A stretch of 56,841 nucleotides of DNA from Saprospiraceae bacterium (GTDB lineage: Bacteria; Bacteroidota; Bacteroidia; Chitinophagales; Saprospiraceae), in NCBI GenBank assembly GCA_049315745.1, contig JBMOJO010000001.1:1-56841 (forward strand), written 5' to 3'. Position 1 is the stretch's first letter. Each line of letters begins with the position of its first letter. Below are positions 285 to 45,902 of this stretch, one piece after another. The position numbers and the translations under genes were made by a program. A model generated the notes under the pieces. The model searched no databases. It saw nothing but the letters and a program-made list of their open reading frames with translations, and was not told the origin of the DNA.

Positions 285-2420
285 ATGAATTGGCGGGAAT
301 TTCCATTGTTCAAAATTTTTCCGGCTTTTCTTCTAGGGATCCTTTTTACGGCGCGGATAATCCCTGAAGCTTACCCACCGGAATTTTTCCTTGTTTTGCT
401 GGGTGTTGCCCTGTGCAGTGTGCTGACGGGCATGGCAGGAGTGTTTGTACGTCGTAGTACCTGGCCATATTTTTGCTGGTTTCAGGCGGCATTTTTTTTA
501 CTTGGGGCATGGCGGTATTCTGCTGTTGCCGGTGAGCGAGTTTCAGGCAGACTTAGCGGGATCGCCGGAAAGGCGACACAGGTACTTGCCGCTGTGGAGG
601 AAGTTCGACAGGGGGTAAGCGTACACAAAGTTACCGCTAGGGTATATGCCGTAACGGACACGACCGGGGATGCGGTGCCCATGGAAGGGAAGGTGATGTT
701 GCTGTTAGAAAAGCGTACAGGGTCTGTGCCGGTTGCCGGCAATATAGTGAGTGTTCGCGGGCGGTTGGTCGAAATCGGGAACAATCCCAATCCGGGGGTA
801 TTCAATTACGCAGCTTATCTGCGCGGGAAGCGGATATACTGGCAGGTTTATGCAAGGTCGGGCGATTGGGCGGTATATCGTCGGGAATTAGCGGCGGGGC
901 CGGGCCGCTGGCTGCAGCGTTGTCGTCGGTATTGCCTCGACCGTCTTGGCACAGTTCTGCCCGGGGGTACAGAATATGCGATTGGGGCGGCATTGTTGCT
1001 GGGCAACCGGGAAAAGATGGACGCGGAGGTCCGGGATATATTCAGCCATACTGGGGCGATGCACATCCTTGCGGTTTCCGGGTTACATGTTGGGATGATT
1101 GCCTGGTGCCTGGGCAGGCTGCTCCAATGGGTGCCGGTGCGGAGCCGATGGGCAAAAGGCGCCGTTCAGGTGATCGGGATATGGGGATATGCGTTGCTGT
1201 GCGGCCTGGGCGCATCGGTAGTTCGTGCTGCGCTCATGTTTAGCTGGTTTACCCTGGGCAGGGTGCTGGATCGTCCTGTGAATATCTGGAACGCCCTCGG
1301 GGGGGCTGCCTTTTTTCTGCTTTTGATAGAACCCCTTTGGATATTTGATATTGGTTTCCAGTTGTCTTTTATGGCCGTTGCGGGCATCGTGCTTTTTGAG
1401 CCGCCCATATACAGGGCTTTATACGTTCGAAACCGCCTGCTGGATTATCTGTGGAAGTTAACGGCGGTTGGCCTGGCGGCACAGCTTGCGACGGCGCCTT
1501 TAGGAATCTATTATTTCCATCAGTTTCCGCTGCTTTTTTGGCTTTCCGGTTGGGTCGCCGTGCCATTGGGGGCGTTGTGCCAGGCGCTCGGGGCATTGTA
1601 TATCATACTGGCACAGGTGCCGGTTATCGGTCCGGGTGCTGGGTGCCTGCTCAATCTTGCGATAAAGGCGATGTACTGGGGCATCTACTGGATAGATCAA
1701 ATCCCGGGCGCCTGTATAAAAGGGTTGTGGCTGAGCGAATGGGGGGCGTGGTGTGCCTGCTTTTGTCTGGGGATTACAGCCTGGGCATTTTTTTTGTCAG
1801 ATAAGCGTGCCGTATGGGTGGGGGCGATGCTGTTATTTTTTGCCGGTATTCTCGAGTTATGTGCCGGGTTAAGAATATCGCAACGGTCCGAGGTGATTTG
1901 TTTTGGGATCAAAAATGCCTCGGCGCTGGAGTATTTGAATGGTCGGGCGGCCACGGGGTTTTATTTCGGCGATAGTGGGCGTATTGCAGCGCAGACGGAG
2001 GGATTTCACCTCCGTGGCCGGGTGCGGTCGCCGGCGCAGCTTCTGATAACGGATACCCTGATCAATCGTCAGGCGGGGGTATTGCAGCGGGGGCCAATGG
2101 CTGTTTTTGAGGCTACCCGTTTTTTTGTCTGGGATGGCAGGGACAGTTGCCGGCGTACGCCCCCGCCCGGTGCAGATTATTGGTTATTGCGCAATAGCCC
2201 ATTTGTGCCCGCGGGCATGCCGACGGATCGTTTTCCACGGCGTGCGGTCGTAATTGACGGCAGCAATTCGGCACGGAGTGTGCGCTTTTACCGGCGTTAT
2301 TTCGGGTCGAGGGGGGTAAAGGTACATTATACCCAAACGGACGGCGTATGGCATTTAAAACTAAAACCAAGAGAAGATGCAACACAAGTGGACAAGCCTC
2401 GATTATTTTTCTCCGGGTGA
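285..2420 (+). CDS. comEC: ComEC/Rec2 family DNA internalisation channel protein
   Basis: 711-aa polytopic membrane ORF with the competence-domain signature ...HTGAMHILAVSGLHVG.... The C-terminal ~190 aa are soluble and carry no HxHxDH motif. Confidence 0.85.
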   Translation: MNWREFPLFKIFPAFLLGILFTARIIPEAYPPEFFLVLLGVALCSVLTGMAGVFVRRSTWPYFCWFQAAFFLLGAWRYSAVAGERVSGRLSGIAGKATQVLAAVEEVRQGVSVHKVTARVYAVTDTTGDAVPMEGKVMLLLEKRTGSVPVAGNIVSVRGRLVEIGNNPNPGVFNYAAYLRGKRIYWQVYARSGDWAVYRRELAAGPGRWLQRCRRYCLDRLGTVLPGGTEYAIGAALLLGNREKMDAEVRDIFSHTGAMHILAVSGLHVGMIAWCLGRLLQWVPVRSRWAKGAVQVIGIWGYALLCGLGASVVRAALMFSWFTLGRVLDRPVNIWNALGGAAFFLLLIEPLWIFDIGFQLSFMAVAGIVLFEPPIYRALYVRNRLLDYLWKLTAVGLAAQLATAPLGIYYFHQFPLLFWLSGWVAVPLGALCQALGALYIILAQVPVIGPGAGCLLNLAIKAMYWGIYWIDQIPGACIKGLWLSEWGAWCACFCLGITAWAFFLSDKRAVWVGAMLLFFAGILELCAGLRISQRSEVICFGIKNASALEYLNGRAATGFYFGDSGRIAAQTEGFHLRGRVRSPAQLLITDTLINRQAGVLQRGPMAVFEATRFFVWDGRDSCRRTPPPGADYWLLRNSPFVPAGMPTDRFPRRAVVIDGSNSARSVRFYRRYFGSRGVKVHYTQTDGVWHLKLKPREDATQVDKPRLFFSG

Positions 2421-3261
2421 ACGGAGGGCCTTACTGATGATCCTGGGGTTATCGGCAGTTTTTTTTTCCTTTCCGACTGCGAGGCTTCCTTCCTCCGGCG
2501 AGGTAACCTTTACAACAGCGGATAAGGAATGGCTGGAATCCGGGTACCGCAAATGGCAGTCGGAGAATACTGAAAATCAGCAGAAAAAAAAGTCCGGAGG
2601 GGTAAGAATTACGGTTTTGCACACCTTCGATCCCAACCGGACAACCCGGGAAGCGTTGTTGGGGATGGGGATCCCCGGCAGGGTTGCGCAGGGTTGGGCA
2701 AGGTACCTGGAAAAAGGGGGGAGGTTTAAGTCAAAGGAAGCCGTGCGGAAAATCTATGGCATGGAGGAGTCCTGGTTTTTACAGCTTCGCCCCTGGATGC
2801 GTATCGAGCAGGAGCGGGATACTTTTCCCCCGTCAGGGATAAAACCATTTCGACGAAAGCCCCTTTGCGTTGCGATCGAGATCAACCTTGCAGATTCTGC
2901 CGCATGGGAGCAACTGCCGGGCATAGGGCCGGTGCTTGCCGGACGGATTGTCCGTTTTCGGGACCGGCTCGGCGGCTTTTATGGTATTCATCAGGTAGGG
3001 GAGACTTATGGGCTTGCGGACTCGGTTTTCCAGCGTATTTTACCCTGCCTTGAGCTTTCTGGGGGGCATCGGCACCTGGATATTAACCAGGCAGCAGAAA
3101 ACGAACTGCGGTCCCATCCTTATATAGGCTATAAACTGGCCAGGATGATTATGGCCTACCGGCAGCAGCACGGTGCGTTTGCTGCCCCCGAGGAGCTTTT
3201 AAAGCTGCCTTTAATGGATACGCTTACACTGGAACGTCTAAAACCTTATCTTCGCAAATAA
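2377..3261 (+). CDS. ComEA-like tandem helix-hairpin-helix DNA-binding protein
   Basis: N-terminal membrane anchor (FSPGERRALLMILGLSAVFF). Two HhH modules (LPGIGPVLAGRIVRFRDRLGGF and HPYIGYKLARMIMAYRQQHGAF). Overlaps the comEC 3' end by 44 nt. Confidence 0.7.
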   Translation: MQHKWTSLDYFSPGERRALLMILGLSAVFFSFPTARLPSSGEVTFTTADKEWLESGYRKWQSENTENQQKKKSGGVRITVLHTFDPNRTTREALLGMGIPGRVAQGWARYLEKGGRFKSKEAVRKIYGMEESWFLQLRPWMRIEQERDTFPPSGIKPFRRKPLCVAIEINLADSAAWEQLPGIGPVLAGRIVRFRDRLGGFYGIHQVGETYGLADSVFQRILPCLELSGGHRHLDINQAAENELRSHPYIGYKLARMIMAYRQQHGAFAAPEELLKLPLMDTLTLERLKPYLRK

Positions 3262-13416: not shown

Positions 13417-13836
13417 ATGAAAGATTTTCTGGACCTTTTCGGACGTTTTTTTTTAGCGGTCTTTTTTTACTTCGAGGCGTTCGACTCGATATTTTGTTTT
13501 CGCGAAACCCGCGATAAAATGACTGCGTATGGGCTTACCTGGAAGCAGGATACCCTTTTGCTCGGTGCGGTTGTATGCCTGATCCTGGGGAGTACCCTGG
13601 TATTGATCGGTTACCGGGCAGCATTCGGCGCCTTCCTGCTTTTTGCCTACTGGCTTCCGGTAACCCTGATCGTCCACGCGTTTTGGAGCGTGCCACCCGG
13701 CCAGCAACGCACAGTATTGGTGGATTTGATGCAGAATATGGCCATTTGCGGCGGTCTGTTCCTGATTATCGCCAACGGTGCCGGCCGCTATTCGATAAAA
13801 AGATTGTTTTCAACGATAAAAGTAGGGGGGACATAA
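13417..13836 (+). CDS. DoxX family membrane protein
   Basis: 139 aa with four hydrophobic helices in a DoxX-like pattern (FLAVFFYFEAFDSI..., MAICGGLFLIIANGAGRYS). Confidence 0.7.
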   Translation: MKDFLDLFGRFFLAVFFYFEAFDSIFCFRETRDKMTAYGLTWKQDTLLLGAVVCLILGSTLVLIGYRAAFGAFLLFAYWLPVTLIVHAFWSVPPGQQRTVLVDLMQNMAICGGLFLIIANGAGRYSIKRLFSTIKVGGT

Positions 13837-14100
13837 AGCCTGGGTTCGTCAGAATGATTGCCATGGAATGCTAATGGAGAAAAAATCCCATATTTCTCCC
13901 GACCCCATCCCCCTGCGCAATGATTCTGCTTTCAAACCACGCGCGATTTCGGTCAAATCGCCTCTGGTATCTCCTTGGTGAGCGGCCTGGGAGAGCTAAA
14001 ATATGTTAAATCAATGTGTTTTTTTCCGCAAAAAAACCGCTTTCAGGTAAATCTTTGTATCTTACACGCAAATTAATTTATCCTAAAACCGTTACAATTT

Positions 14101-14871
14101 GTGATGAGGGCCATCATAGTCGAAGACGAACCACTTGGGCGGACCAACTTAAAGATGATGATCCGTCAGCACTGCCCTGATGTCGAATTAGTTGGTGAGG
14201 CAGGCAGCAACGAAGAGGCGGTCCAAATGCTAAAGGGCTTGAAAGAACGCCCGGACCTGGCATTTCTGGATATCAAGCTACCTGATGGGCTGGTCTTCAA
14301 AATGCTGAACGAGGTCCAGCCGATTGACTTCGAGGTAATTTTTGTTACGGCCTGGCAGGAATATGCAATCAAAGCATGCGAGTACAGCTCCATCGGGTAT
14401 ATTCTGAAACCGATTGACCCCGATGTTCTGAAAGATTCGATCGCAAGGGTACGGTCGCGCGCGGCTGCGCAGATTGATCGTCGCCTGGATATATTCTCCA
14501 ATTTCTACCAGAACCCCAATACGTTCTCAAAGATGAGTATATCCGCCCTTGATGGCATATACTTCGTCAATATCAAGGATATCTACCGCTTCGAGGCCGA
14601 GGATAATTACACCCACATCTATATGAAGGGGGGAGAGCGGATAACGGCTTCCAAAACGATAAAATATTACGAAGAATTACTCGCGCCTTTCAATTTCTTC
14701 CGCGTGCATAAACGACACATGATCAACCTTAATTATATGTCGAAGTATATCCGGGGAGAGGGAGGGTACGTGATCATGGATGAAGGCTTGCAGATCGAGG
14801 TGTCCAGGAGGAGGCGCACTTCCTTTATAGACCTGCTGCGCCGCCTGCAGGGTGGCCGCCAGATGGAATAA
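14101..14871 (+). CDS. LytTR/AlgR family response regulator (REC + LytTR DNA-binding domain)
   Basis: REC motifs (IIVEDEP, LAFLDIKLPDG, ILKP). LytTR domain (IYRFEAEDNYTHIYMKGGERITASKTI...FFRVHKRHMINLNY). GTG at 14101 or ATG at 14104. Confidence 0.9.
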   Translation: MMRAIIVEDEPLGRTNLKMMIRQHCPDVELVGEAGSNEEAVQMLKGLKERPDLAFLDIKLPDGLVFKMLNEVQPIDFEVIFVTAWQEYAIKACEYSSIGYILKPIDPDVLKDSIARVRSRAAAQIDRRLDIFSNFYQNPNTFSKMSISALDGIYFVNIKDIYRFEAEDNYTHIYMKGGERITASKTIKYYEELLAPFNFFRVHKRHMINLNYMSKYIRGEGGYVIMDEGLQIEVSRRRRTSFIDLLRRLQGGRQME

Positions 14872-15049
14872 GTCGCGAAAAGGTGTTCAAAGTTTCTCGG
14901 ATAAAATAAACAGCATAGCTTACGGTGGCTTACAGCGGATTTTCAGCAACAATTGTGTGAGGTCCAACGTTCAACCGTAACTGTCCCAAAAATTTTAAAC
15001 TTTTAATTGGTTTATCCCCCTTAGCTAATTAAATAATTATTACAACACT

Positions 15050-15199
15050 ATGAGGAAGGAAAACAAGGACAAAGAACTTGAGGAAATCAAGAAGAACTTC
15101 AATCTGAAGCCCGTCAAGAAAGAGGATATGAAAAAAATCAAAGGCGGTAAAAGTGGCAGGCCATGGCAAAACGGATGTTCTGATATCATCCCGCAGTAA
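15050..15199 (+). CDS. Unannotated 49-aa peptide precursor with a double-glycine leader: MRKENKDKELEEIKKNFNLKPVKKEDMKKIKGG / KSGRPWQNGCSDIIPQ
   Basis: Translated by hand; it falls below the 60-aa cutoff of the ORF track. The leader ends in the ...EDMKKIKGG motif typical of Bacteroidota GG-type precursors. The pre-ATG context is A/T-rich and an intrinsic terminator follows 25 nt after the stop. Confidence 0.65.
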   Translation: MRKENKDKELEEIKKNFNLKPVKKEDMKKIKGGKSGRPWQNGCSDIIPQ

Positions 15200-15224
15200 A
15201 TTGCAGCCCTTTTTGCCTAACAAA

Positions 15225-15261
15225 AGGCTACTCTTTTTCATGAAAGAGGTGGCCTTTTTTT
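15225..15261 (+). terminator. Intrinsic terminator after the GG-peptide ORF
   Basis: AGGCTACTCTTT-ttcatg-AAAGAGGTGGCCT hairpin (one bulge) followed by seven T. Confidence 0.7.
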
Positions 15262-15275
15262 GTATATACTTTTCC

Positions 15276-15290
15276 GCTTTACTGTAAAGC
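15276..15290. promoter_or_regulatory. 7-1-7 inverted repeat GCTTTAC-T-GTAAAGC upstream of the kinase gene (candidate operator)
   Basis: Perfect palindrome 41 nt upstream of the ATG at 15331. The GCTTAC half-site is related to the direct repeat GCTTACGGTGGCTTACAG at 14918-14935. Confidence 0.3.
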
Positions 15291-15330
15291 AGATGTAATC
15301 CGGTAAAAAACGCATCTAATTAGTTTTTGC

Positions 15331-17256
15331 ATGGTTTTACCCGTACTAAACGGCCCCGATATTCCGTCACTGGAGTACCAGCTCCAGGAACCCATCAGCG
15401 ATCGGTCAACTATAGACATCATAGACCGGCTCCTTTCTTATTATGCGTTTACCAATGTACAGCGCTCCAGGCAGCTGCTTCAACAACAAGAGGTGCTGCT
15501 GGATCAAGCCCCTGCTGTATATTATTTACAGAATTATTATACGTATCGCGGTATTGTCGAGAACCAGGCATACGATTACGCAGCCTCGGCCCGCTATTTT
15601 CTGAGGGCCATCGCGCTTGCCGAAGAAAACAGGGATGCGCGGGCCCAAGTCGAATTGTATATTGATTATGCCGGGACTTGCATCAACAATCGGACGCTTG
15701 AGGAGGCACAGACCTTTTTAGACAAGGCCTTGCGCCTTCTGCGCATCTATCCCGATCCGTGCCTGGAAGCCAGGGTAACCAGCAGGGAAGGCTTCCTGCA
15801 AATCTTCTACTCCAATTATTCCCGGGCAATCGAACTTTTGCTGGAAGCGGATAAGGCAATCGCCGCGTTGGGCCGGGAGCGCCTTACAACAAAAGATTAT
15901 TTTTTCCTCGTACTGATCTATAACGGTTTCGGAATCATTCATGAGCGCAACGATGACCCTGAAAGCAGTGTGCGGGCTTATCAAAAAGCTGCCTCGATAG
16001 CAGAAGAAATCGGAATGCGCACCAGGATGTCCTGGATATATCTGAACATCGGCAACGGCTTTTTGTCGCTGGGCAAACTTGGCAAAGCAGCTATTTTTTT
16101 TTCGAAAGCTGCCAAGGCCGTAGATGATCCCCACCCCGTTTCAAAAGCGAGCGCATTCGCAAACCTGGGGTATTGCAAGCTGCATAAAAAGCGCTACGTA
16201 GAGGCCTTAACACTCCTCGAACGCGCCGAGACCCTTTTTAACCAGGTGGCGGAAACCTCCGCTTCCAAAAACTATGCCTTGATCGAGGCATGGCGGGGCT
16301 CTGTTTTTGCGCGGACCGGGGAACGGGAAAAGGCCATCCTGCATTTCTTCCAGGCGGTCGCCCTGGCTGATAAAGAAGCTGATTACAAACAGTTGTCTGG
16401 TATCTTCCAGGATATGGCAGAGTTCTATGCCGACCAATCAGATTTTCGTACCGCATACGAGTATCAGCTGCAGCATAGCAAATATGCAGAACTCTACCAC
16501 GTCAAGGTAAACCAAAGAAAACGTACCGAGCTGGAGTATAAGTATCAGGCAGAACAAAAACAACAGGAAGCCGAAATGCTCAAACTGCAGGCCACCCGGC
16601 TACAGCTAAAGGCCCTCCGCGCACAAATGAACCCCCATTTTATCTATAATGCACTCAATTCTATACAGCACTTTATCAACTCCTACCAAACCGACTCAGC
16701 CTCAAAGTACCTGGCTATGTTCGCACGCCTTATGCGGCAAAGCCTGGATTACTCGGACCTGGAAATTATTTCCCTGGATAAGGAAATCAGCTTCCTGAGC
16801 GATTACCTCTTTATCAATCAAAAACTCCGCTTCGACAACGGGCTGCGTTATGAAATTAAGGTGGACGACGAGCTGGACGAGGATATGGTCGGGGTGCCTA
16901 CCATGATTGTTCAGCCGTATGTCGAAAATGCAATCGAACATGGCCTGCGAACGAAGAACGCAGGAATGATCAGCATCCATTTTTCATTGCTGGATGAATT
17001 GAGTATCCTCTGTATCATCAAGGATAATGGGGTTGGCAGAAAACAGGCAATCCTGAACCAGCAGTTGGATTCAAAATTCCAAAAACATCGCTCCCGCGGT
17101 ACCAGCATCACAGAACAGCGGCTACAGTTACTGACGAATTCACGCAACGAAGGAGGAGACGTCAAAACGATTGACCTGGAAGATGAACAGGGCAGACCAT
17201 GTGGGACGCGGGTGGAGGTGAAAATCCCGATAATGGAGATCCCTTTCGGCGCCTAA
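15331..17256 (+). CDS. Soluble TPR-repeat sensor histidine kinase, LytS/YehU type (His_kinase + HATPase)
   Basis: 641 aa with no signal peptide and no membrane-length hydrophobic segment. The first ~400 aa are TPR-like repeats. A charged coiled coil (KRTELEYKYQAEQKQQEAEMLKLQATRLQLKALRAQ) follows. Then comes the H-box MNPHFIYNALNSIQHF and an ATPase domain (VENAIEHG, DNGVG, GTSITEQRL). Confidence 0.88.
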   Translation: MVLPVLNGPDIPSLEYQLQEPISDRSTIDIIDRLLSYYAFTNVQRSRQLLQQQEVLLDQAPAVYYLQNYYTYRGIVENQAYDYAASARYFLRAIALAEENRDARAQVELYIDYAGTCINNRTLEEAQTFLDKALRLLRIYPDPCLEARVTSREGFLQIFYSNYSRAIELLLEADKAIAALGRERLTTKDYFFLVLIYNGFGIIHERNDDPESSVRAYQKAASIAEEIGMRTRMSWIYLNIGNGFLSLGKLGKAAIFFSKAAKAVDDPHPVSKASAFANLGYCKLHKKRYVEALTLLERAETLFNQVAETSASKNYALIEAWRGSVFARTGEREKAILHFFQAVALADKEADYKQLSGIFQDMAEFYADQSDFRTAYEYQLQHSKYAELYHVKVNQRKRTELEYKYQAEQKQQEAEMLKLQATRLQLKALRAQMNPHFIYNALNSIQHFINSYQTDSASKYLAMFARLMRQSLDYSDLEIISLDKEISFLSDYLFINQKLRFDNGLRYEIKVDDELDEDMVGVPTMIVQPYVENAIEHGLRTKNAGMISIHFSLLDELSILCIIKDNGVGRKQAILNQQLDSKFQKHRSRGTSITEQRLQLLTNSRNEGGDVKTIDLEDEQGRPCGTRVEVKIPIMEIPFGA

Positions 17257-17464
17257 CCGCCTTCATGCCGCCAACGGTAAGCTGAAATCATCGCGCGCAC
17301 TTCCGGCTTTTGACTTTTGCCGCTTACTCCACCCTGGCTGCACCCGACCGGCATGGCCACTTCGCCTACCACCGTCCTGCCTTTTTTCCAAGCTGAAAAT
17401 ATTTAAAAAAATCAACAACAGGTTTGGGCTTTATTATATTAAAAAAATATTATATATTTGCAAT

Positions 17465-17528
17465 GTTTTCTCGTAGTAAGTTTGTTTGATCTTCCCGCAC
17501 CTCTGGTCTCTGGAGGTGCCTTTTTTTT
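17465..17528 (+). ncRNA. Small terminator-capped unit 1 (candidate sRNA): box GTTTTCTCGTAGTAAG + hairpin GCACCTC/GAGGTGC + T8
   Basis: A perfect -7 box TATATTTG (17453-17460) lies 4 nt upstream. The conserved box is shared with units 2 and 3. The only ORF is 8 codons. Confidence 0.4.
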
Positions 17529-17624
17529 GCCGTATTCTCACAAGGATGTACCGAAGGAAGGACGGTTGGACGCATACCCTAAATGGGGCTATGGATTAAG
17601 GTTTTGGGGTTTATCTTTGATTTA

Positions 17625-17681
17625 GTTTTCTCATAGTATGTTTATTGGCCTGCGCATGGTTAAAATGCCGCAGGCTTTTTT
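17625..17681 (+). ncRNA. Small terminator-capped unit 2 (candidate sRNA): box GTTTTCTCATAGTATG + hairpin GCCTGCGCAT/ATGCCGCAGGC + T6
   Basis: A -7 box TATCTTTG (17612-17619) lies 5 nt upstream. The box is identical to that of unit 3. The terminator sequence is different. Confidence 0.4.
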
Positions 17682-17788
17682 ATGCGGCAGACCACATCAT
17701 AAGCGGTTTCGACACTTCATTTTGAAAAACTGCCGTATCCTAAAATGGCATTTGAAACCTGAAGAAGGCAAGTTACATTTATGCCGTA

Positions 17789-17851
17789 GTTTTCTCATAG
17801 TATGTTGCTGGCTCCTACGATCAACCTCCCTGATCGTAGGAGCTTTTTTTT
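17789..17851 (+). ncRNA. Small terminator-capped unit 3 (candidate sRNA): box GTTTTCTCATAGTATG + 13-bp hairpin GCTCCTACGATCA/TGATCGTAGGAGC + T8
   Basis: An imperfect -7 box TACATTTA lies at 17774-17781. An upstream box TATCCTAAAATGG (17733-17745) parallels ATACCCTAAATGG (17574-17586) in front of unit 2. Confidence 0.4.
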
Positions 17852-17985
17852 GGGTAGCTACCCCCCCGGTGCCCGTCCGGAAAATCCGGCGGGCAAAATC
17901 CGCACCGGCCACTCGGGTGTGATGTGAAAGTGCCGGCGGCCTGTTTCCGGCCCGCGGCGATCCGAAAGCAGCACATTTATTTTTC

Positions 17986-18127
17986 GTATCTATTTACCAG
18001 GGGTATCCGCGGCTTCGCCGCGAAGGGTTTTATTTGGTGTGCGTGCATTTTTTACGCGCGAACGCGCGTAAAAAATGCACGCACACCAAAGATTATTTCC
18101 CAGGGCAATGACCTGCTAAATAGATAC
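17986..18127. mobile_element. MITE-like element, family A copy 1 (142 bp; TIR GTATCTATTTA / TAAATAGATAC; 8-bp TSD TATTTTTC)
   Basis: The TIRs and the flanking direct repeats (17978-17985 and 18128-18135) are read directly. The internal perfect 28-2-28 palindrome spans 18033-18090. There is no ORF. Confidence 0.8.
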
Positions 18128-20646
18128 TATTTTTCTACGATAAAAAAAGATCGTTCCAGTTGATTGCCGTCGGTGTCAACGAGGGTAAGCACATGGTGGC
18201 CGGCGCTTGGCCTGAGTTCGAAGTGGTGAAAAGTTTGGGTGCTTCCTAAATATATTTTATCCAGATGCCAGAAGACGCGGGTGTCGGGGTTTCGGTGGGC
18301 AAGTTTAAATACCGTTGCGGATAAGTTTCCGTCCAGGTCTTTCGGAATATAAATTCGGGCATTGCGGGATGGATAGATTAGTTGCATAGGGCTATTTGCC
18401 CCGTCATATTGTACGGCGCCTTGTGCACAGTCGGGGCGAAGCGGCGGGAGTGGCTGATACGCTGGATGTTTTTTCCTGTAATAAAATTCCTCGAGGGTAG
18501 GGAGGACGAACCAGCTCTCGTGAAGGATGGTTTCTGCGGGCTGGCAACTTGCGCTGACCTGAAAGTTGCGCCCCGGGTCTAAATGGATCAGGGTATGGAA
18601 GCGGCAGTCGGGGGCAAGGGCACTTTTTGCGGGCAGCAGTACCGTATCTGCGGGGCAAAACCTTCCTGCCGGCCATCCGCTTTCCCGGCATACCGGGCTT
18701 TTCCTTAGCCCATCGTATGGTTTCTGAAACCATCCGGAAGCCGGCAGCAAGCCAAAGAGTTCGAACATAAAGGGCGCGGCCACACGGGTGCCGATGAGAC
18801 CGGGGCGTCCTACGCCATCGGCATTGCCTACCCAGGTGGCGACCAGGTACTCGGGGGTAAGGCCAATTGCCCAGGCATCCCTGAAGCCGAAGCTGGTCCC
18901 CGTTTTCCAGGCAATTCTTCGACTTGAGCTAAAGTATTGCCAGTCGCCTTCGGATTCCGGTCTTCCCAGTTCCTGCATAGCCTCGAAGGTATGCCAGAGC
19001 GTGCCGGCATCGAAGCGGGGCGCTTTTCGCAAAAATGCGTCGGGGCGTTCGGGCACCGGATGGTTTTGCAGAAAATCCAGAGGGCGGAAATCGTTTTTGC
19101 GGTATCTGCTATTGTGGCTGTTAAAGGTGAGGAGGGTTCTGGCCATGGAGGTATAGACTCCGCCGATGTCCCAGAGGGTGGCTTCGGCACCGCCCAGTAT
19201 AAGCGAGAGGCCGTAGTGGTCGGGGCCTTTCGTAACCGTGCTTATGCCGAGTTTGTGAAGCTGATAATGCAGCCGCCCGACACCATATTGCCTCAAGAGA
19301 TGTACAAATGGAACGTTGAGGGAGCGGGACAGGGCTTTATCTGCGGGTGCCATCCCGTCGTAGTCACGTTGAAAATTTTCAGGATGGTAGCCATTGATAT
19401 TCATCGGCACGTCCGGCAGCAGGCTTGAAGGCAGGATACTGCCCTCCTGGACTGCCAGGGCGAAGAGTATGGGTTTGAGGATGCTACCGGTACTGCGCGG
19501 TGCGGTGACGATATCCACTTCCTGTCCGTGTGCTGCACCGGTGTTGGGCGCGTTGCCAATATATGCGAGGACCCTGCCGCTCGGTACATGTACGATCAGG
19601 GCAGCCAGGTTATGGATTTCGTTAAACTTGAGGACGAGATGGTTGCGGGCGCTTACTTCTATGGCTTTTTGCTGCAGGTCGGCGCTGATTGAAGTCTTAA
19701 TCCTTTGGCCGGGCTTTGTTGCCGCTACGCGCTGGAGCAGGTGCGGGGCCAGGGCCGGGAGCGGAAGCGGGGCATCGGGTAGCGGCTCGGAAAGCGCGAG
19801 GTCTAGCGACAAAGCATCAATTTTGCCTCTTTGGTGCAACTTCTTGAGCAACCTGTTCCGCTTCAGGCGCAATGCCTCCCGATTTCGGCCGGGGTGGATA
19901 AGTGCAGGGCTGTTGGGCAGAATGGCCAGCAGGGCCGCTTCGGCCCAGGAAAGGAAGTGGGGCGGTTTTCCGAAATATCTCCACGCTGCGGCTTCGATAC
20001 CTACCACATTGCCGCCAAAAGGCGCCTGTGCGGCATAGAAGTGCAGGATACGTTTTTTCGGATAACGCAATTCGAGACGGGTCGCCAGAATGACCTCGAT
20101 AATTTTTTCAGGGATATTTCTCGATTTCCCCTTCCTCGACAGGCGGACGACCTGCATACTCAGGGTACTGCCCCCGCTGATGACCCTGCGGCCGCGCAGA
20201 TTCTGCAGTACCGCACGGCCAAAAGCGAGCGGGTCAACGCCTGGATGATAAAAGAACCGCTGGTCTTCAAATGCGACCAACGCCCGGACGTATTTTTCCG
20301 GAAGGCTGTCCGGTTCGGGAAAGCGCCATTGACCGTCTCCAGCAATCCTGGCGCCAAGCAGCCGGCCCGATTGATCTTCGATGACCGTACTGAAGGGGGC
20401 ATCGAACAATTTTTTTGGCAAACAAAATACATACCCAAGCAATAACGGCAGGGATACCAGGAAATAAAGCCGTTTGCGGGGATGGTGCCAGATATGCGAC
20501 TTTAACCAGACGAAGAGGCTTCCTGCCGTTGATAGGAAAAGCCTGAGCAGCCAGGAGCTTTTCACGGAAAGGTAGTGTAGCCGCTTGCCGGCAGCAATGC
20601 GGATTATCCGCCCATACCGGAAATCATATCTTCGGGTTTCACCCAT
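18127..20646 (-). CDS. pbpC: Penicillin-binding protein 1C (bifunctional glycosyltransferase/transpeptidase)
   Basis: GT51 motifs ([31 protein letters not shown]-like, [10 protein letters not shown]), a transpeptidase core (STGSILKP) and a PBP1C-type C-terminal domain. The ATG at 20646 overlaps the fumC 3' end by 43 nt. An in-frame GTG at 20565 is an alternative start. Confidence 0.85.
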
Positions 20647-45146: not shown

Positions 45147-45902
45147 ATGGAACAAGTTGATTTGACCAAGGTCCTTTTTCTGGACATTGAAACCGTCTCG
45201 GCATATCGGACCTTCGGGGAGCAGCCGGAATATTTCCAGGAGCTGTGGAGGCACCGCAGCCGTCAATGGGCCCAAGCGGCAGATTCGCCGGAGGAAGACG
45301 CGGCAGCCGCGTTGTATCGGGAGAAGGCGGGCATTTTTGCGGAATTTGGAAAAATCGTATGTATATCGGTGGGGGTTTTGGTGGAGGGGAAAAATGGAGA
45401 AGGGCTTCAGGTGCGGCTAAAATCGTTTGCCGGGGACGACGAGGCCGCTTTGCTGCGGGATTTTTGTGCCCTGCTTAATGAGCGCTATCCGAACCCGCGG
45501 GAGCATTACCTTTGCGGGCACAACATCAGGGAGTTTGATATTCCTTACCTCTGCCGCAGGATGGTGGTCCACCAGTTGCCTTTTCCTGCATTGATGGACC
45601 TCTCAGGGAAAAAACCCTGGGAAACCCTGCATCTGCTGGATACTATGGAATACTGGAAATTTGGGGATAAAAAGAGCTATACTTCGCTCAAGCTGCTTGC
45701 CGCACTATTGGATTTTCCATCGCCCAAGGACGATATTGACGGCAGCCAGGTTGGCCGGGTGTATTATGAGGAAAACGACTTGCCGCGGATTTCTTTTTAT
45801 TGTGAAAAAGATGTACTTGCCACCATCCAGTTAACGCTGCGTTTTCGCAGGATGCCCGTTCTGGAAAGCGGGCAGGTGACCCATGTGGGGAGGGACGAGT
45901 AG
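45147..45902 (+). CDS. Predicted 3'-5' exonuclease (PolB-exonuclease-like, RNase H fold)
   Basis: DEDD-type motifs: VLFLDIETVS (ExoI), GHNIREFDIPYL (ExoII), YCEKDVLAT (ExoIII). Confidence 0.75.
   Translation: MEQVDLTKVLFLDIETVSAYRTFGEQPEYFQELWRHRSRQWAQAADSPEEDAAAALYREKAGIFAEFGKIVCISVGVLVEGKNGEGLQVRLKSFAGDDEAALLRDFCALLNERYPNPREHYLCGHNIREFDIPYLCRRMVVHQLPFPALMDLSGKKPWETLHLLDTMEYWKFGDKKSYTSLKLLAALLDFPSPKDDIDGSQVGRVYYEENDLPRISFYCEKDVLATIQLTLRFRRMPVLESGQVTHVGRDE

Follow-up and report, generated by a model that had tools for sequence, protein, structure and literature searches.

The stretch of DNA analysed here, 56,841 nucleotides of contig JBMOJO010000001.1 from Saprospiraceae bacterium (hereafter the window), carries a four-part module that is found across the order Saprospirales: a LytTR regulator, a peptide with a double-glycine (GG) leader, a cytoplasmic tetratricopeptide repeat (TPR) kinase and one to three tandem small RNAs (sRNAs). 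All parts lie on the forward strand. The regulator (REC and LytTR domains in Pfam, 256 amino acids) occupies positions 14101–14871, with a probable start at the ATG at 14104, and is followed by the peptide precursor gene of 49 codons (open reading frame and family hidden Markov model, HMM) at 15050–15199 and by the soluble histidine kinase of 641 amino acids (Pfam and AlphaFold2) at 15331–17256. The original prediction, made from the sequence alone, had placed these three co-oriented genes correctly, and missed the fourth part, three tandem putative sRNAs of ~60 nt at 17465–17851, which together with their control regions span 17453–17851 (motif, hairpins and position weight matrix, PWM). In the best-supported model, which we consider on balance probable, the parts would form a feedback circuit running from the peptide to the TPR kinase, the LytTR regulator, the sRNAs and back to translation of the peptide. 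We found no literature on a regulator–peptide–kinase–sRNA system, in line with the earlier remark that the arrangement was not known to have been characterised in Bacteroidota.

Species-representative genomes scanned for the kinase yielded 80 species loci; with close relatives and the window the wider set comprises 87 sources. The kinase orthologues form a tight group of ~640-residue proteins from Haliscomenobacter, Flavilitoribacter, Phaeodactylibacter, Lewinella and uncultured Saprospiraceae, which corresponds to the order Saprospirales in the NCBI taxonomy. In 63 of the 80 species loci an orthologue of the regulator (55–70% identity) precedes the kinase by 300–1100 bp, and the family HMM finds the peptide gene directly upstream of the kinase in 69 of them and in the window, a diverged copy being present in L043. 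The order of regulator, small open reading frame (ORF) and kinase, for which a survey of related genomes had been suggested, is thus kept across Saprospirales. In the closest relatives (64–88% kinase identity) synteny is perfect from DAHP synthase to superoxide dismutase. Kinase/regulator pairs lacking a neighbouring peptide gene had been named as a finding that, if frequent, would refute the circuit; peptide-less kinase loci turned out to be rare, and most are truncated contigs or result from relocation of the kinase within the same genome.

The HMM search agrees with the domain order first read from the kinase sequence. TPR repeats (TPR_12/TPR_2) are followed by a His_kinase domain (PF06580, E 2e-21, residues 425–503) with a LytS-type H-box, MNPHF, and by HATPase_c (all Pfam). 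The AlphaFold2 model (mean predicted local distance difference test score, pLDDT, 86.7) consists of soluble domains throughout and shows 18 helices, that is nine TPR-like pairs, then the helix with His436 and then the catalytic domain. The TPR superhelix covers residues 11–368 (15361–16434) and the long signalling or dimerisation and histidine phosphotransfer (DHp) helix the 79 residues 372–450 (16444–16680, with the His436 codon at 16636–16638), while the ATP-binding domain (Pfam, AlphaFold2) extends to 17253. All catalytic boxes are invariant among the orthologues. Foldseek with the TPR part retrieves peptide-binding superhelices of a generic kind (LGN/Pins, consensus TPR, OGT) and, lower in the ranking, Rap receptors; the closest solved structure of the kinase domain is GanS (Foldseek/alignment). 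A reading of the kinase as FimS was rejected: the NCBIfam match spans the TPR part only and is far under its cut-off. In the regulator, Response_reg (E 6e-14) and LytTR (E 2e-19) are matched in Pfam, and the best NCBIfam match, BtsR, is under its cut-off.

Neither a transmembrane (TM) helix nor a signal peptide is found in the window kinase. Its highest 19-residue Kyte-Doolittle mean, 1.68, falls in a beta-strand of the ATPase domain; the neighbouring DoxX membrane protein reaches 2.62. A TM-like segment or an N-terminal hydrophobic run occurs in 0 of 119 kinase homologues, and the absence of signal peptide and membrane segment, originally noted for the window protein, holds for the whole family. 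The 5TM-Lyt (LytS-YhcK) membrane sensor domain is likewise absent, the N-terminal 370 residues being TPR repeats with no TM helix. An exhaustive kinase profile search of 1.84 billion representatives returned ~60 end-to-end orthologue clusters and then a score gap. The next-nearest kinases, membrane-anchored proteins of Bacteroidota, also have TPR repeats followed by the same kinase core, but their TPRs face the periplasm: a TM helix lies 15–130 residues ahead of the H-box in 59 of 78 and an N-terminal hydrophobic segment is present in 31 of 78, compared with 0 of 57 orthologue clusters for either feature. Because most of these relatives have a TM helix and none of the orthologue clusters does, the family is a cytoplasmic branch of a widespread class of kinases whose TPR sensors are periplasmic, and it is the soluble family that is tied to the peptide and the sRNAs.

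The product of the small ORF is MRKENKDKELEEIKKNFNLKPVKKEDMKKIKGG followed by KSGRPWQNGCSDIIPQ, with cleavage predicted after the double glycine that ends the first part. The leader (M1–G33, 15050–15148) is of the GG type and not a Sec signal; it matches the GG pattern in the alignment of the peptide family, with hydrophobic residues at −4/−7/−12/−15 and an acidic one at −8. The predicted mature 16-mer KSGRPWQNGCSDIIPQ is encoded at 15149–15196, and a terminator hairpin with a T-run (RNAfold −20 kcal/mol) follows at 15218–15262 and is kept in relatives at 64–88% kinase identity. Aligned family members begin with M-G/R-K and continue with the GG-type leader, the invariant GG, a variable Lys-rich stretch and a conserved tail, W-N-x-G-C-G-G-I-[VL]-P-Q, which reads C-S-D-I-I-P-Q in the window. 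The C-terminal Pro is invariant like the GG site, whose conservation was in question; the ending is P-[QLH], the last residue being almost always Gln. The reading frame is intact in ~70 of the 80 species, and the pairwise ratio of nonsynonymous to synonymous substitution rates (dN/dS) is ~0.38, values that argue for a coding and constrained ORF and against its being absent or non-coding in syntenic loci. It is the sole GG-leader-like small ORF in the window, and in the closest relatives gene callers also predict the peptide gene. GG-leader models (NCBIfam/GG-leader HMMs) match weakly and below cut-off, matches to bactofencin and GG-bacteriocin leader models are likewise weak, and database names are hypothetical or, rarely, 'bacteriocin-like'. 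TIGR04149, the model for GG-motif radical-SAM precursors of ribosomally synthesised and post-translationally modified peptides, reaches E <= 0.1 in 7 of 16 family members, all under the 25-bit cut-off; the window has no radical-SAM maturase gene, nor is one among the conserved flanking genes.

Kinase and convergent pbpC are separated by 870 bp, in which lie three forward-strand units, each composed of a Bacteroidetes-type −7 box (TAnnTTTG), a seed GTTTTCTC[A/G]TAGTA[T/A]GTT, a G+C hairpin and a T-run. The first (17453–17527) has its −7 box, TATATTTG, at 17453–17460, a predicted transcript at ~17465–17527 with the seed GUUUUCUCGUAGUAAGUU, and a terminator hairpin. The second, with its control region at 17528–17681, has the −7 box at 17612–17619, a predicted transcript at 17625–17681, an exact seed and a hairpin of −19 kcal/mol; the third (17690–17851 with control region) has the −7 box at 17774–17781 and a predicted transcript at 17789–17851. 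Seeds start at 17465, 17625 and 17789, and the predicted 5' end of the sRNAs is the G of GUUUUCUC. Three seed matches in the window compare with 0.01 expected.

Conservation of these units extends well beyond the closest relatives, in which they are preserved nearly base for base with a compensatory change in hairpin 1. The exact 18-mer seed is present in one to three copies per locus, always on the kinase strand, and in all but one of the 51 loci that have it the kinase immediately precedes it. An sRNA lies behind the kinase in 50 of the 80 species loci; with up to two mismatches the seed is found in 59 of the 87 sources, a range that takes in kinases only 43–55% identical. Every copy folds into ~20 unpaired 5' nucleotides and a terminator hairpin with a C-rich loop. 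In the alignment of the type-C hairpin 6 of 11 stem pairs show double changes and 99.5% of cells are paired; none of 500 shuffles reaches the observed covariation values, and slid registers collapse. Reading the units as small ORFs was rejected, as loop lengths vary out of frame and the changes are paired across the stem. A search of 13800–18200 found no Rfam family for them. Taken together these features point to small RNAs of ~55–65 nt with covarying terminators, and we are nearly certain that the sRNAs exist. In each of the three sRNA types the loops are rich in C (CCCUCC, CCCUUC, CCUCCCC; for example window 17824–17830 and L010:6005–6015). By analogy with the UCCC loops of staphylococcal sRNAs, such anti-Shine-Dalgarno-like loops may provide a second pairing surface for G-rich sites.

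Upstream of the sRNAs we found repeated boxes of the kind expected for the regulator. Iterative refinement gave a 14-nt matrix, tACC[G/A][T/C]TT[C/T]CTAAa, whose matches begin at −98/−102, −77/−81 and −56/−60 from the sRNA 5' end, with spacings almost only of 21 or 42 bp. Over all loci 149 of 287 strong PWM matches fall on the forward strand of the sRNA region, and loci lacking adjacent sRNAs have no phased boxes. Most sRNA copies have phased boxes, sRNA1 of the window clade being an exception. In the window, sRNA2 has a distal box at 17528–17541 and a weak proximal one at 17570–17583 (9.8 and 3.7 bits, at −97 and −55), and sRNA3 has boxes at 17690–17703 and 17731–17744 (10.3 and 15.6 bits, at −99 and −58), the latter being the best box of the entire window. 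LytTR regulators follow a rule of two 9–11-nt repeats with 11–13-nt spacers, and the YehT/BtsR site is ACCGCTTA-N13-ACCACTCA (PMC4847170). The box layout fits this rule and the half-site ACC[G/A][T/C]TT resembles the YehT/BtsR site. Judged by adjacency and architecture, the neighbouring regulator probably binds the boxes.

The region before the peptide gene looks different. A conserved element of the 5' untranslated region (5'-UTR), TCCCGTG or GTCCCAAAA, is found at 14980–14990 in the window, with an equivalent ~25–30 nt before the peptide ATG in L004–L080, and a subset of loci has an upstream AAAAATGTG/ATGTGTTAATA motif ~119 nt before that ATG. Both differ from the sRNA boxes, so that the peptide promoter seems to be under its own control.

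A link between the sRNAs and the peptide gene is suggested by complementarity. Taken as its reverse complement, AACAUACUAUGAGAAAAC, the seed corresponds to the sequence around the AUG of the peptide mRNA; the site is ACUAUGGGAAAA in most species and ACUAUGAGGAAG in the window, where it forms a predicted 12-nt Watson-Crick/G-U run across the start codon at 15047–15058 (forward strand), ACUAUGAG being the stretch of the peptide start region opposite the sRNA seed. Over 52 loci the median longest complementary run is 12 nt; 1040 dinucleotide shuffles (maximum 11) give 6, as do the regulator and kinase start regions. The duplex energy is ~−15 versus −6.5 kcal/mol in the controls. Codon usage points in the same direction. 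Codon 2 of the peptide is GGA in 39 of 46 cases of Gly and AGA in nine further cases, whereas GGA accounts for 35% and 14% of the codons for the two GG-motif glycines; this bias indicates a synonymous-site constraint that peptide function leaves unexplained. Pairing of the seed with the peptide start region is thus highly likely in our view, and occlusion of the start codon, hence repression, is its expected outcome. In five loci with non-complementary starts (L035, L054, L055, L067, L070) compensatory seed variants were sought, and neither an sRNA nor phased boxes were present within 5 kb. A 17-nt Watson-Crick/G-U complement to the seed (UAUUAUGAGGAAAAC…) lies elsewhere in the window at 45762–45778 (forward strand), inside ORF 45147–45902 for a predicted PolB-like 3'-5' exonuclease; by a rough estimate ~0.01–0.02 such complements are expected in the window by chance. 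It could be a second sRNA target or a coincidence.

Whether the peptide is the ligand of the kinase was approached through covariation. At kinase residue 159, located in a conserved HYSNYS turn after helix 143–159, 46 of 65 orthologues have His and the window protein has Phe; this is the kinase column best associated with tails departing from GG[ILV][ILV]P[QL]. A non-canonical tail accompanies 17 of 19 kinases without His159 and 9 of 46 with it (Fisher 1.9e-7). On a tree of catalytic-domain and regulator sequences, His159 changes to Lys independently in two clades, where peptide position −4 has become acidic, and to Phe/Tyr in two others (the window clade and P. luteus), where the tail GG has become SD. 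This covariation is suggestive, a statistical hint that the peptide tail may contact the TPR domain, and we lean towards the peptide being the kinase ligand.

The proposed circuit would then work as follows. The peptide, most likely via its conserved C-terminal tail (...C-G-G-I-V-P-Q; here C-S-D-I-I-P-Q), would bind the TPR superhelix and shift the kinase/phosphatase balance of the soluble kinase, which in turn would set the phosphorylation of the LytTR regulator. Phosphorylated regulator would bind the two to three direct repeats at 21-bp phase, centred near −98, −77 and −56, and activate the sRNA promoters. The single-stranded 18-nt 5' seed of the sRNAs would anneal to the AUG region of the peptide mRNA (~−4 to +9), most likely blocking translation initiation and so closing a feedback loop on peptide synthesis; the sRNAs probably hit further targets elsewhere in the genome. 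Regulator–box binding, the role of the peptide as ligand, the sign of each step and the place of sensing, before export or after re-import, are the steps that we infer.

A number of results weigh against this circuit. Mirror-tree analysis (partial Mantel, controlled for the catalytic domain and the regulator) gave a partial r of 0.16 (p ~0.04) between peptide core and TPR domain, which does not exceed the values for these two controls. The best control columns in the residue association reach p = 4e-5 (catalytic domain) and 4.8e-6 (regulator); because control columns also score strongly, phylogeny inflates all these values, and L026, L066 and L067 are exceptions to the pattern of residue 159 and tail. 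No boxes are found at the peptide promoter: the spacer between regulator and peptide gene holds 4 of the 287 strong matches over all loci and none in the window, and sRNA1 of the window clade has no upstream box. The presence of an adjacent sRNA is not significantly related to start-site complementarity (p = 0.2). The parts are also separable, since 30 of the 80 kinase loci have no adjacent sRNA and, in a metagenome scan with the seed (120 loci, L087–L206), 53 of 128 evaluable sRNA hits lie behind a kinase and 75 have none nearby. One Haliscomenobacter lineage has the kinase ~25 kb from regulator and peptide on the same contig (L208:7015-8150, L003; NZ_CBDDBS010000002.1): regulator and peptide remain at the ancestral site beside DoxX, the kinase is beside a transporter of the major facilitator superfamily, and no sRNA adjoins either. 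The 'orphan' kinases L001–L003 had been taken for peptide-less paralogues, which this arrangement led us to reject for L003. The topology is paradoxical as well: the GG leader points to secretion through a C39-peptidase ABC transporter, whereas the kinase senses in the cytoplasm. As originally stated, the window lacks any C39/ABC exporter, importer or maturase gene; it has no Opp genes either, and among the genes conserved within 5 kb of the 80 loci there is no exporter, importer or maturation gene. Finally, in Clostridioides difficile the LytTR system RgaS-RgaR controls an sRNA and a peptide gene and is not signalled by that peptide (PMC10602386).

Alternatively, the same parts could work with a peptide sensed before export, the kinase binding the unprocessed precursor or its C-terminus inside the producer cell. 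Such a loop would act as a homeostat or a checkpoint on secretion that gauges how much precursor the cell contains or how much it can export, instead of cell density, and it would need no importer. That no kinase homologue has a TM helix or signal peptide and no importer is linked fits well with this possibility, as does sRNA feedback aimed at translation of the precursor itself. The C-terminal tail is moreover the most conserved mature part and common to most genera, which suits a housekeeping receptor better than diverging pherotypes. On the other hand, the GG leader is kept in every species, so that export and cleavage seem to matter, there is no obvious reason to keep a peptide that serves only self-measurement, and the tail diversifies with kinase residue 159 in several clades, as in specificity switching between strains. 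We therefore regard sensing before export as possible but rather unlikely. The route through export and re-import known from quorum sensing is itself doubtful at best.

It is less likely still that the peptide is an output or passenger, a cationic bacteriocin-like or secreted product tuned by the two-component system via the sRNAs, with the TPR domain sensing a protein partner or another cue. TPR domains often bind proteins, the mature part is Lys-rich with a Trp, and the occasional 'bacteriocin-like' annotation and weak leader-model matches point the same way; the mirror-tree value no higher than its controls and the RgaS-RgaR precedent agree with this explanation too. Yet none of the 80 loci has immunity, exporter or maturation genes alongside, which is atypical for a bacteriocin; throughout the order the peptide gene is a core gene, present once and in a conserved housekeeping setting, and residue 159 tracks tail changes through repeated independent switches. 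As for ordinary membrane-receptor quorum sensing of the Com/Blp/Pln kind, a GG-leader peptide beside a LytTR two-component system is indeed its classic three-component layout. The counts of 0 of 119 homologues and 0 of 57 clusters with a TM helix, together with a kinase core of the PF06580/LytS type closest to GanS, refute it; chance origin of the ORF and the 'sRNAs' is refuted by the frame kept in ~70 species and by a seed exceeding expectation, invariant across genera and followed by covarying hairpins. Either possibility is extremely improbable. The hybrid reading of the original prediction is thus supported in part: it withstands the searches for a membrane kinase, a non-coding small ORF and peptide-less pairs, but its Com-type autoinduction half fails, since the boxes precede the sRNA genes and not the peptide gene.

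Comparison with known systems helps to place the module. It shares with ComCDE, BlpCHR and PlnABCD a small GG-leader peptide gene within a two-component locus with a LytTR regulator, and sites of the regulator type arranged as direct repeats with ~21-bp phasing. Their kinase, however, is a polytopic HPK10 membrane receptor and here it is a soluble TPR + PF06580 protein; the boxes precede sRNA genes and not a peptide operon, a dedicated C39 ABC exporter is neither present in the window nor conserved within 5 kb of the 80 loci, and the host is a diderm of the Bacteroidota. With neither a membrane receptor nor boxes at the peptide promoter, the locus falls outside the Com/Blp/Pln class. It should be noted that Agr had been listed among the GG-leader systems, which is a factual slip: Com, Blp and Pln peptides carry such leaders, Agr precursors do not. 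With the RRNPP(A) systems (Rap, NprR, PlcR, PrgX, Rgg, AimR), to our knowledge described only in Gram-positives and their mobile elements, the module has in common a cytoplasmic TPR superhelix beside a small propeptide gene, Rap being among the fold matches, and a receptor residue covarying with the peptide. Sequence similarity to them is only that of generic TPRs. Since the effector is a histidine kinase domain and not a helix-turn-helix domain or phosphatase surface, the locus lies outside RRNPP; its propeptide also has a GG leader where theirs have a Sec or PptAB signal (with Opp re-import).

The kinase core (PF06580 + HATPase), the REC-LytTR regulator closest to BtsR and the box half-site tie the module to LytS/BtsS(YehU)-LytTR pairs, from which it differs in that a soluble nine-repeat TPR domain replaces the 5TM-Lyt sensor, the targets are sRNAs, and the repeats are three and phased, not two. 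The sRNA arm recalls LuxO-Qrr of Vibrio, where a phospho-regulated activator drives several near-identical sRNAs that feed back on signalling components. A Qrr-like logic may be discerned in paralogous sRNAs with an identical seed, each with its own −7 box and terminator (three in the window, one to three in 59 of the 87 sources), whose activation we infer from sequence; the regulator there belongs, however, to the sigma-54/LuxO class. A regulatory RNA beside a signalling locus is also known from Staphylococcus agr-RNAIII and C. difficile RgaS-RgaR-SpoZ. Unlike Qrr, RNAIII and SpoZ, the RNAs described here have as predicted primary target the start codon of the signal precursor itself; they are ~60 nt long with a 5' seed and C-rich terminator loops, and show no sequence or Rfam kinship to those RNAs. 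By analogy, the locus may work like a blend of Com and RRNPP with a Qrr-like sRNA arm.

Quorum sensing by peptides is considered typical of Gram-positive bacteria, and two types of receptor are known for it, membrane kinases and cytoplasmic TPR regulators. If our model is true, the module joins both receptor logics within one protein, and no signalling loop based on a peptide may have been described in Bacteroidota before. A kinase-type TPR peptide receptor would be a receptor class not described before, and switches in the tail and residue 159 would give strain-specific 'pherotypes'. Only tentatively do we put forward the full proposal, that peptide cell-to-cell signalling is native to a diderm phylum, with a kinase that is itself the cytoplasmic TPR peptide receptor and with regulator-dependent sRNAs closing the loop at the precursor start codon. 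Few sRNA circuits are understood in Bacteroidota, and for the new sRNA family, whose seed is exactly conserved, both an activator site and a primary target are predicted. The order that harbours the module is ecologically relevant, Haliscomenobacter, Lewinella and Phaeodactylibacter occurring in activated sludge and with marine algae.

Neighbours recurring in the flanks of the 80 loci are solely housekeeping genes (DoxX, a FAD protein, pbpC), with no transporter among them, and the rest of the window is housekeeping too. ComEC (Competence + DUF4131) and ComEA-like (HHH_3) genes at 285–3261, ~11 kb upstream of the module, show no link to it. Among the metagenomic sRNA hits with no kinase nearby, most keep boxes and hairpin and a few are chance matches to the 18-mer. 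In ~50 metagenome loci sRNAs with phased boxes and hairpins occur with no two-component system nearby (for example L113:5629-5838, L123:2186-2398, L166:4213), and therefore sRNA genes are dispersed in some genomes. Their contexts vary, and several adjoin metalloproteases (M43, M36) secreted by the type IX secretion system. Just beyond the 3' end of pbpC, at 18026–18098, lies a long near-perfect palindrome (…GGTGTGCGTGCATTTTTTACGCGCGAACGCGCGTAAAAAATGCACGCACACC…), which caused spurious Rfam miRNA/snoRNA matches in 13800–18200. The segment ~17860–18100 is absent from close relatives, and the palindrome may be an inserted repeat element or a bidirectional terminator.

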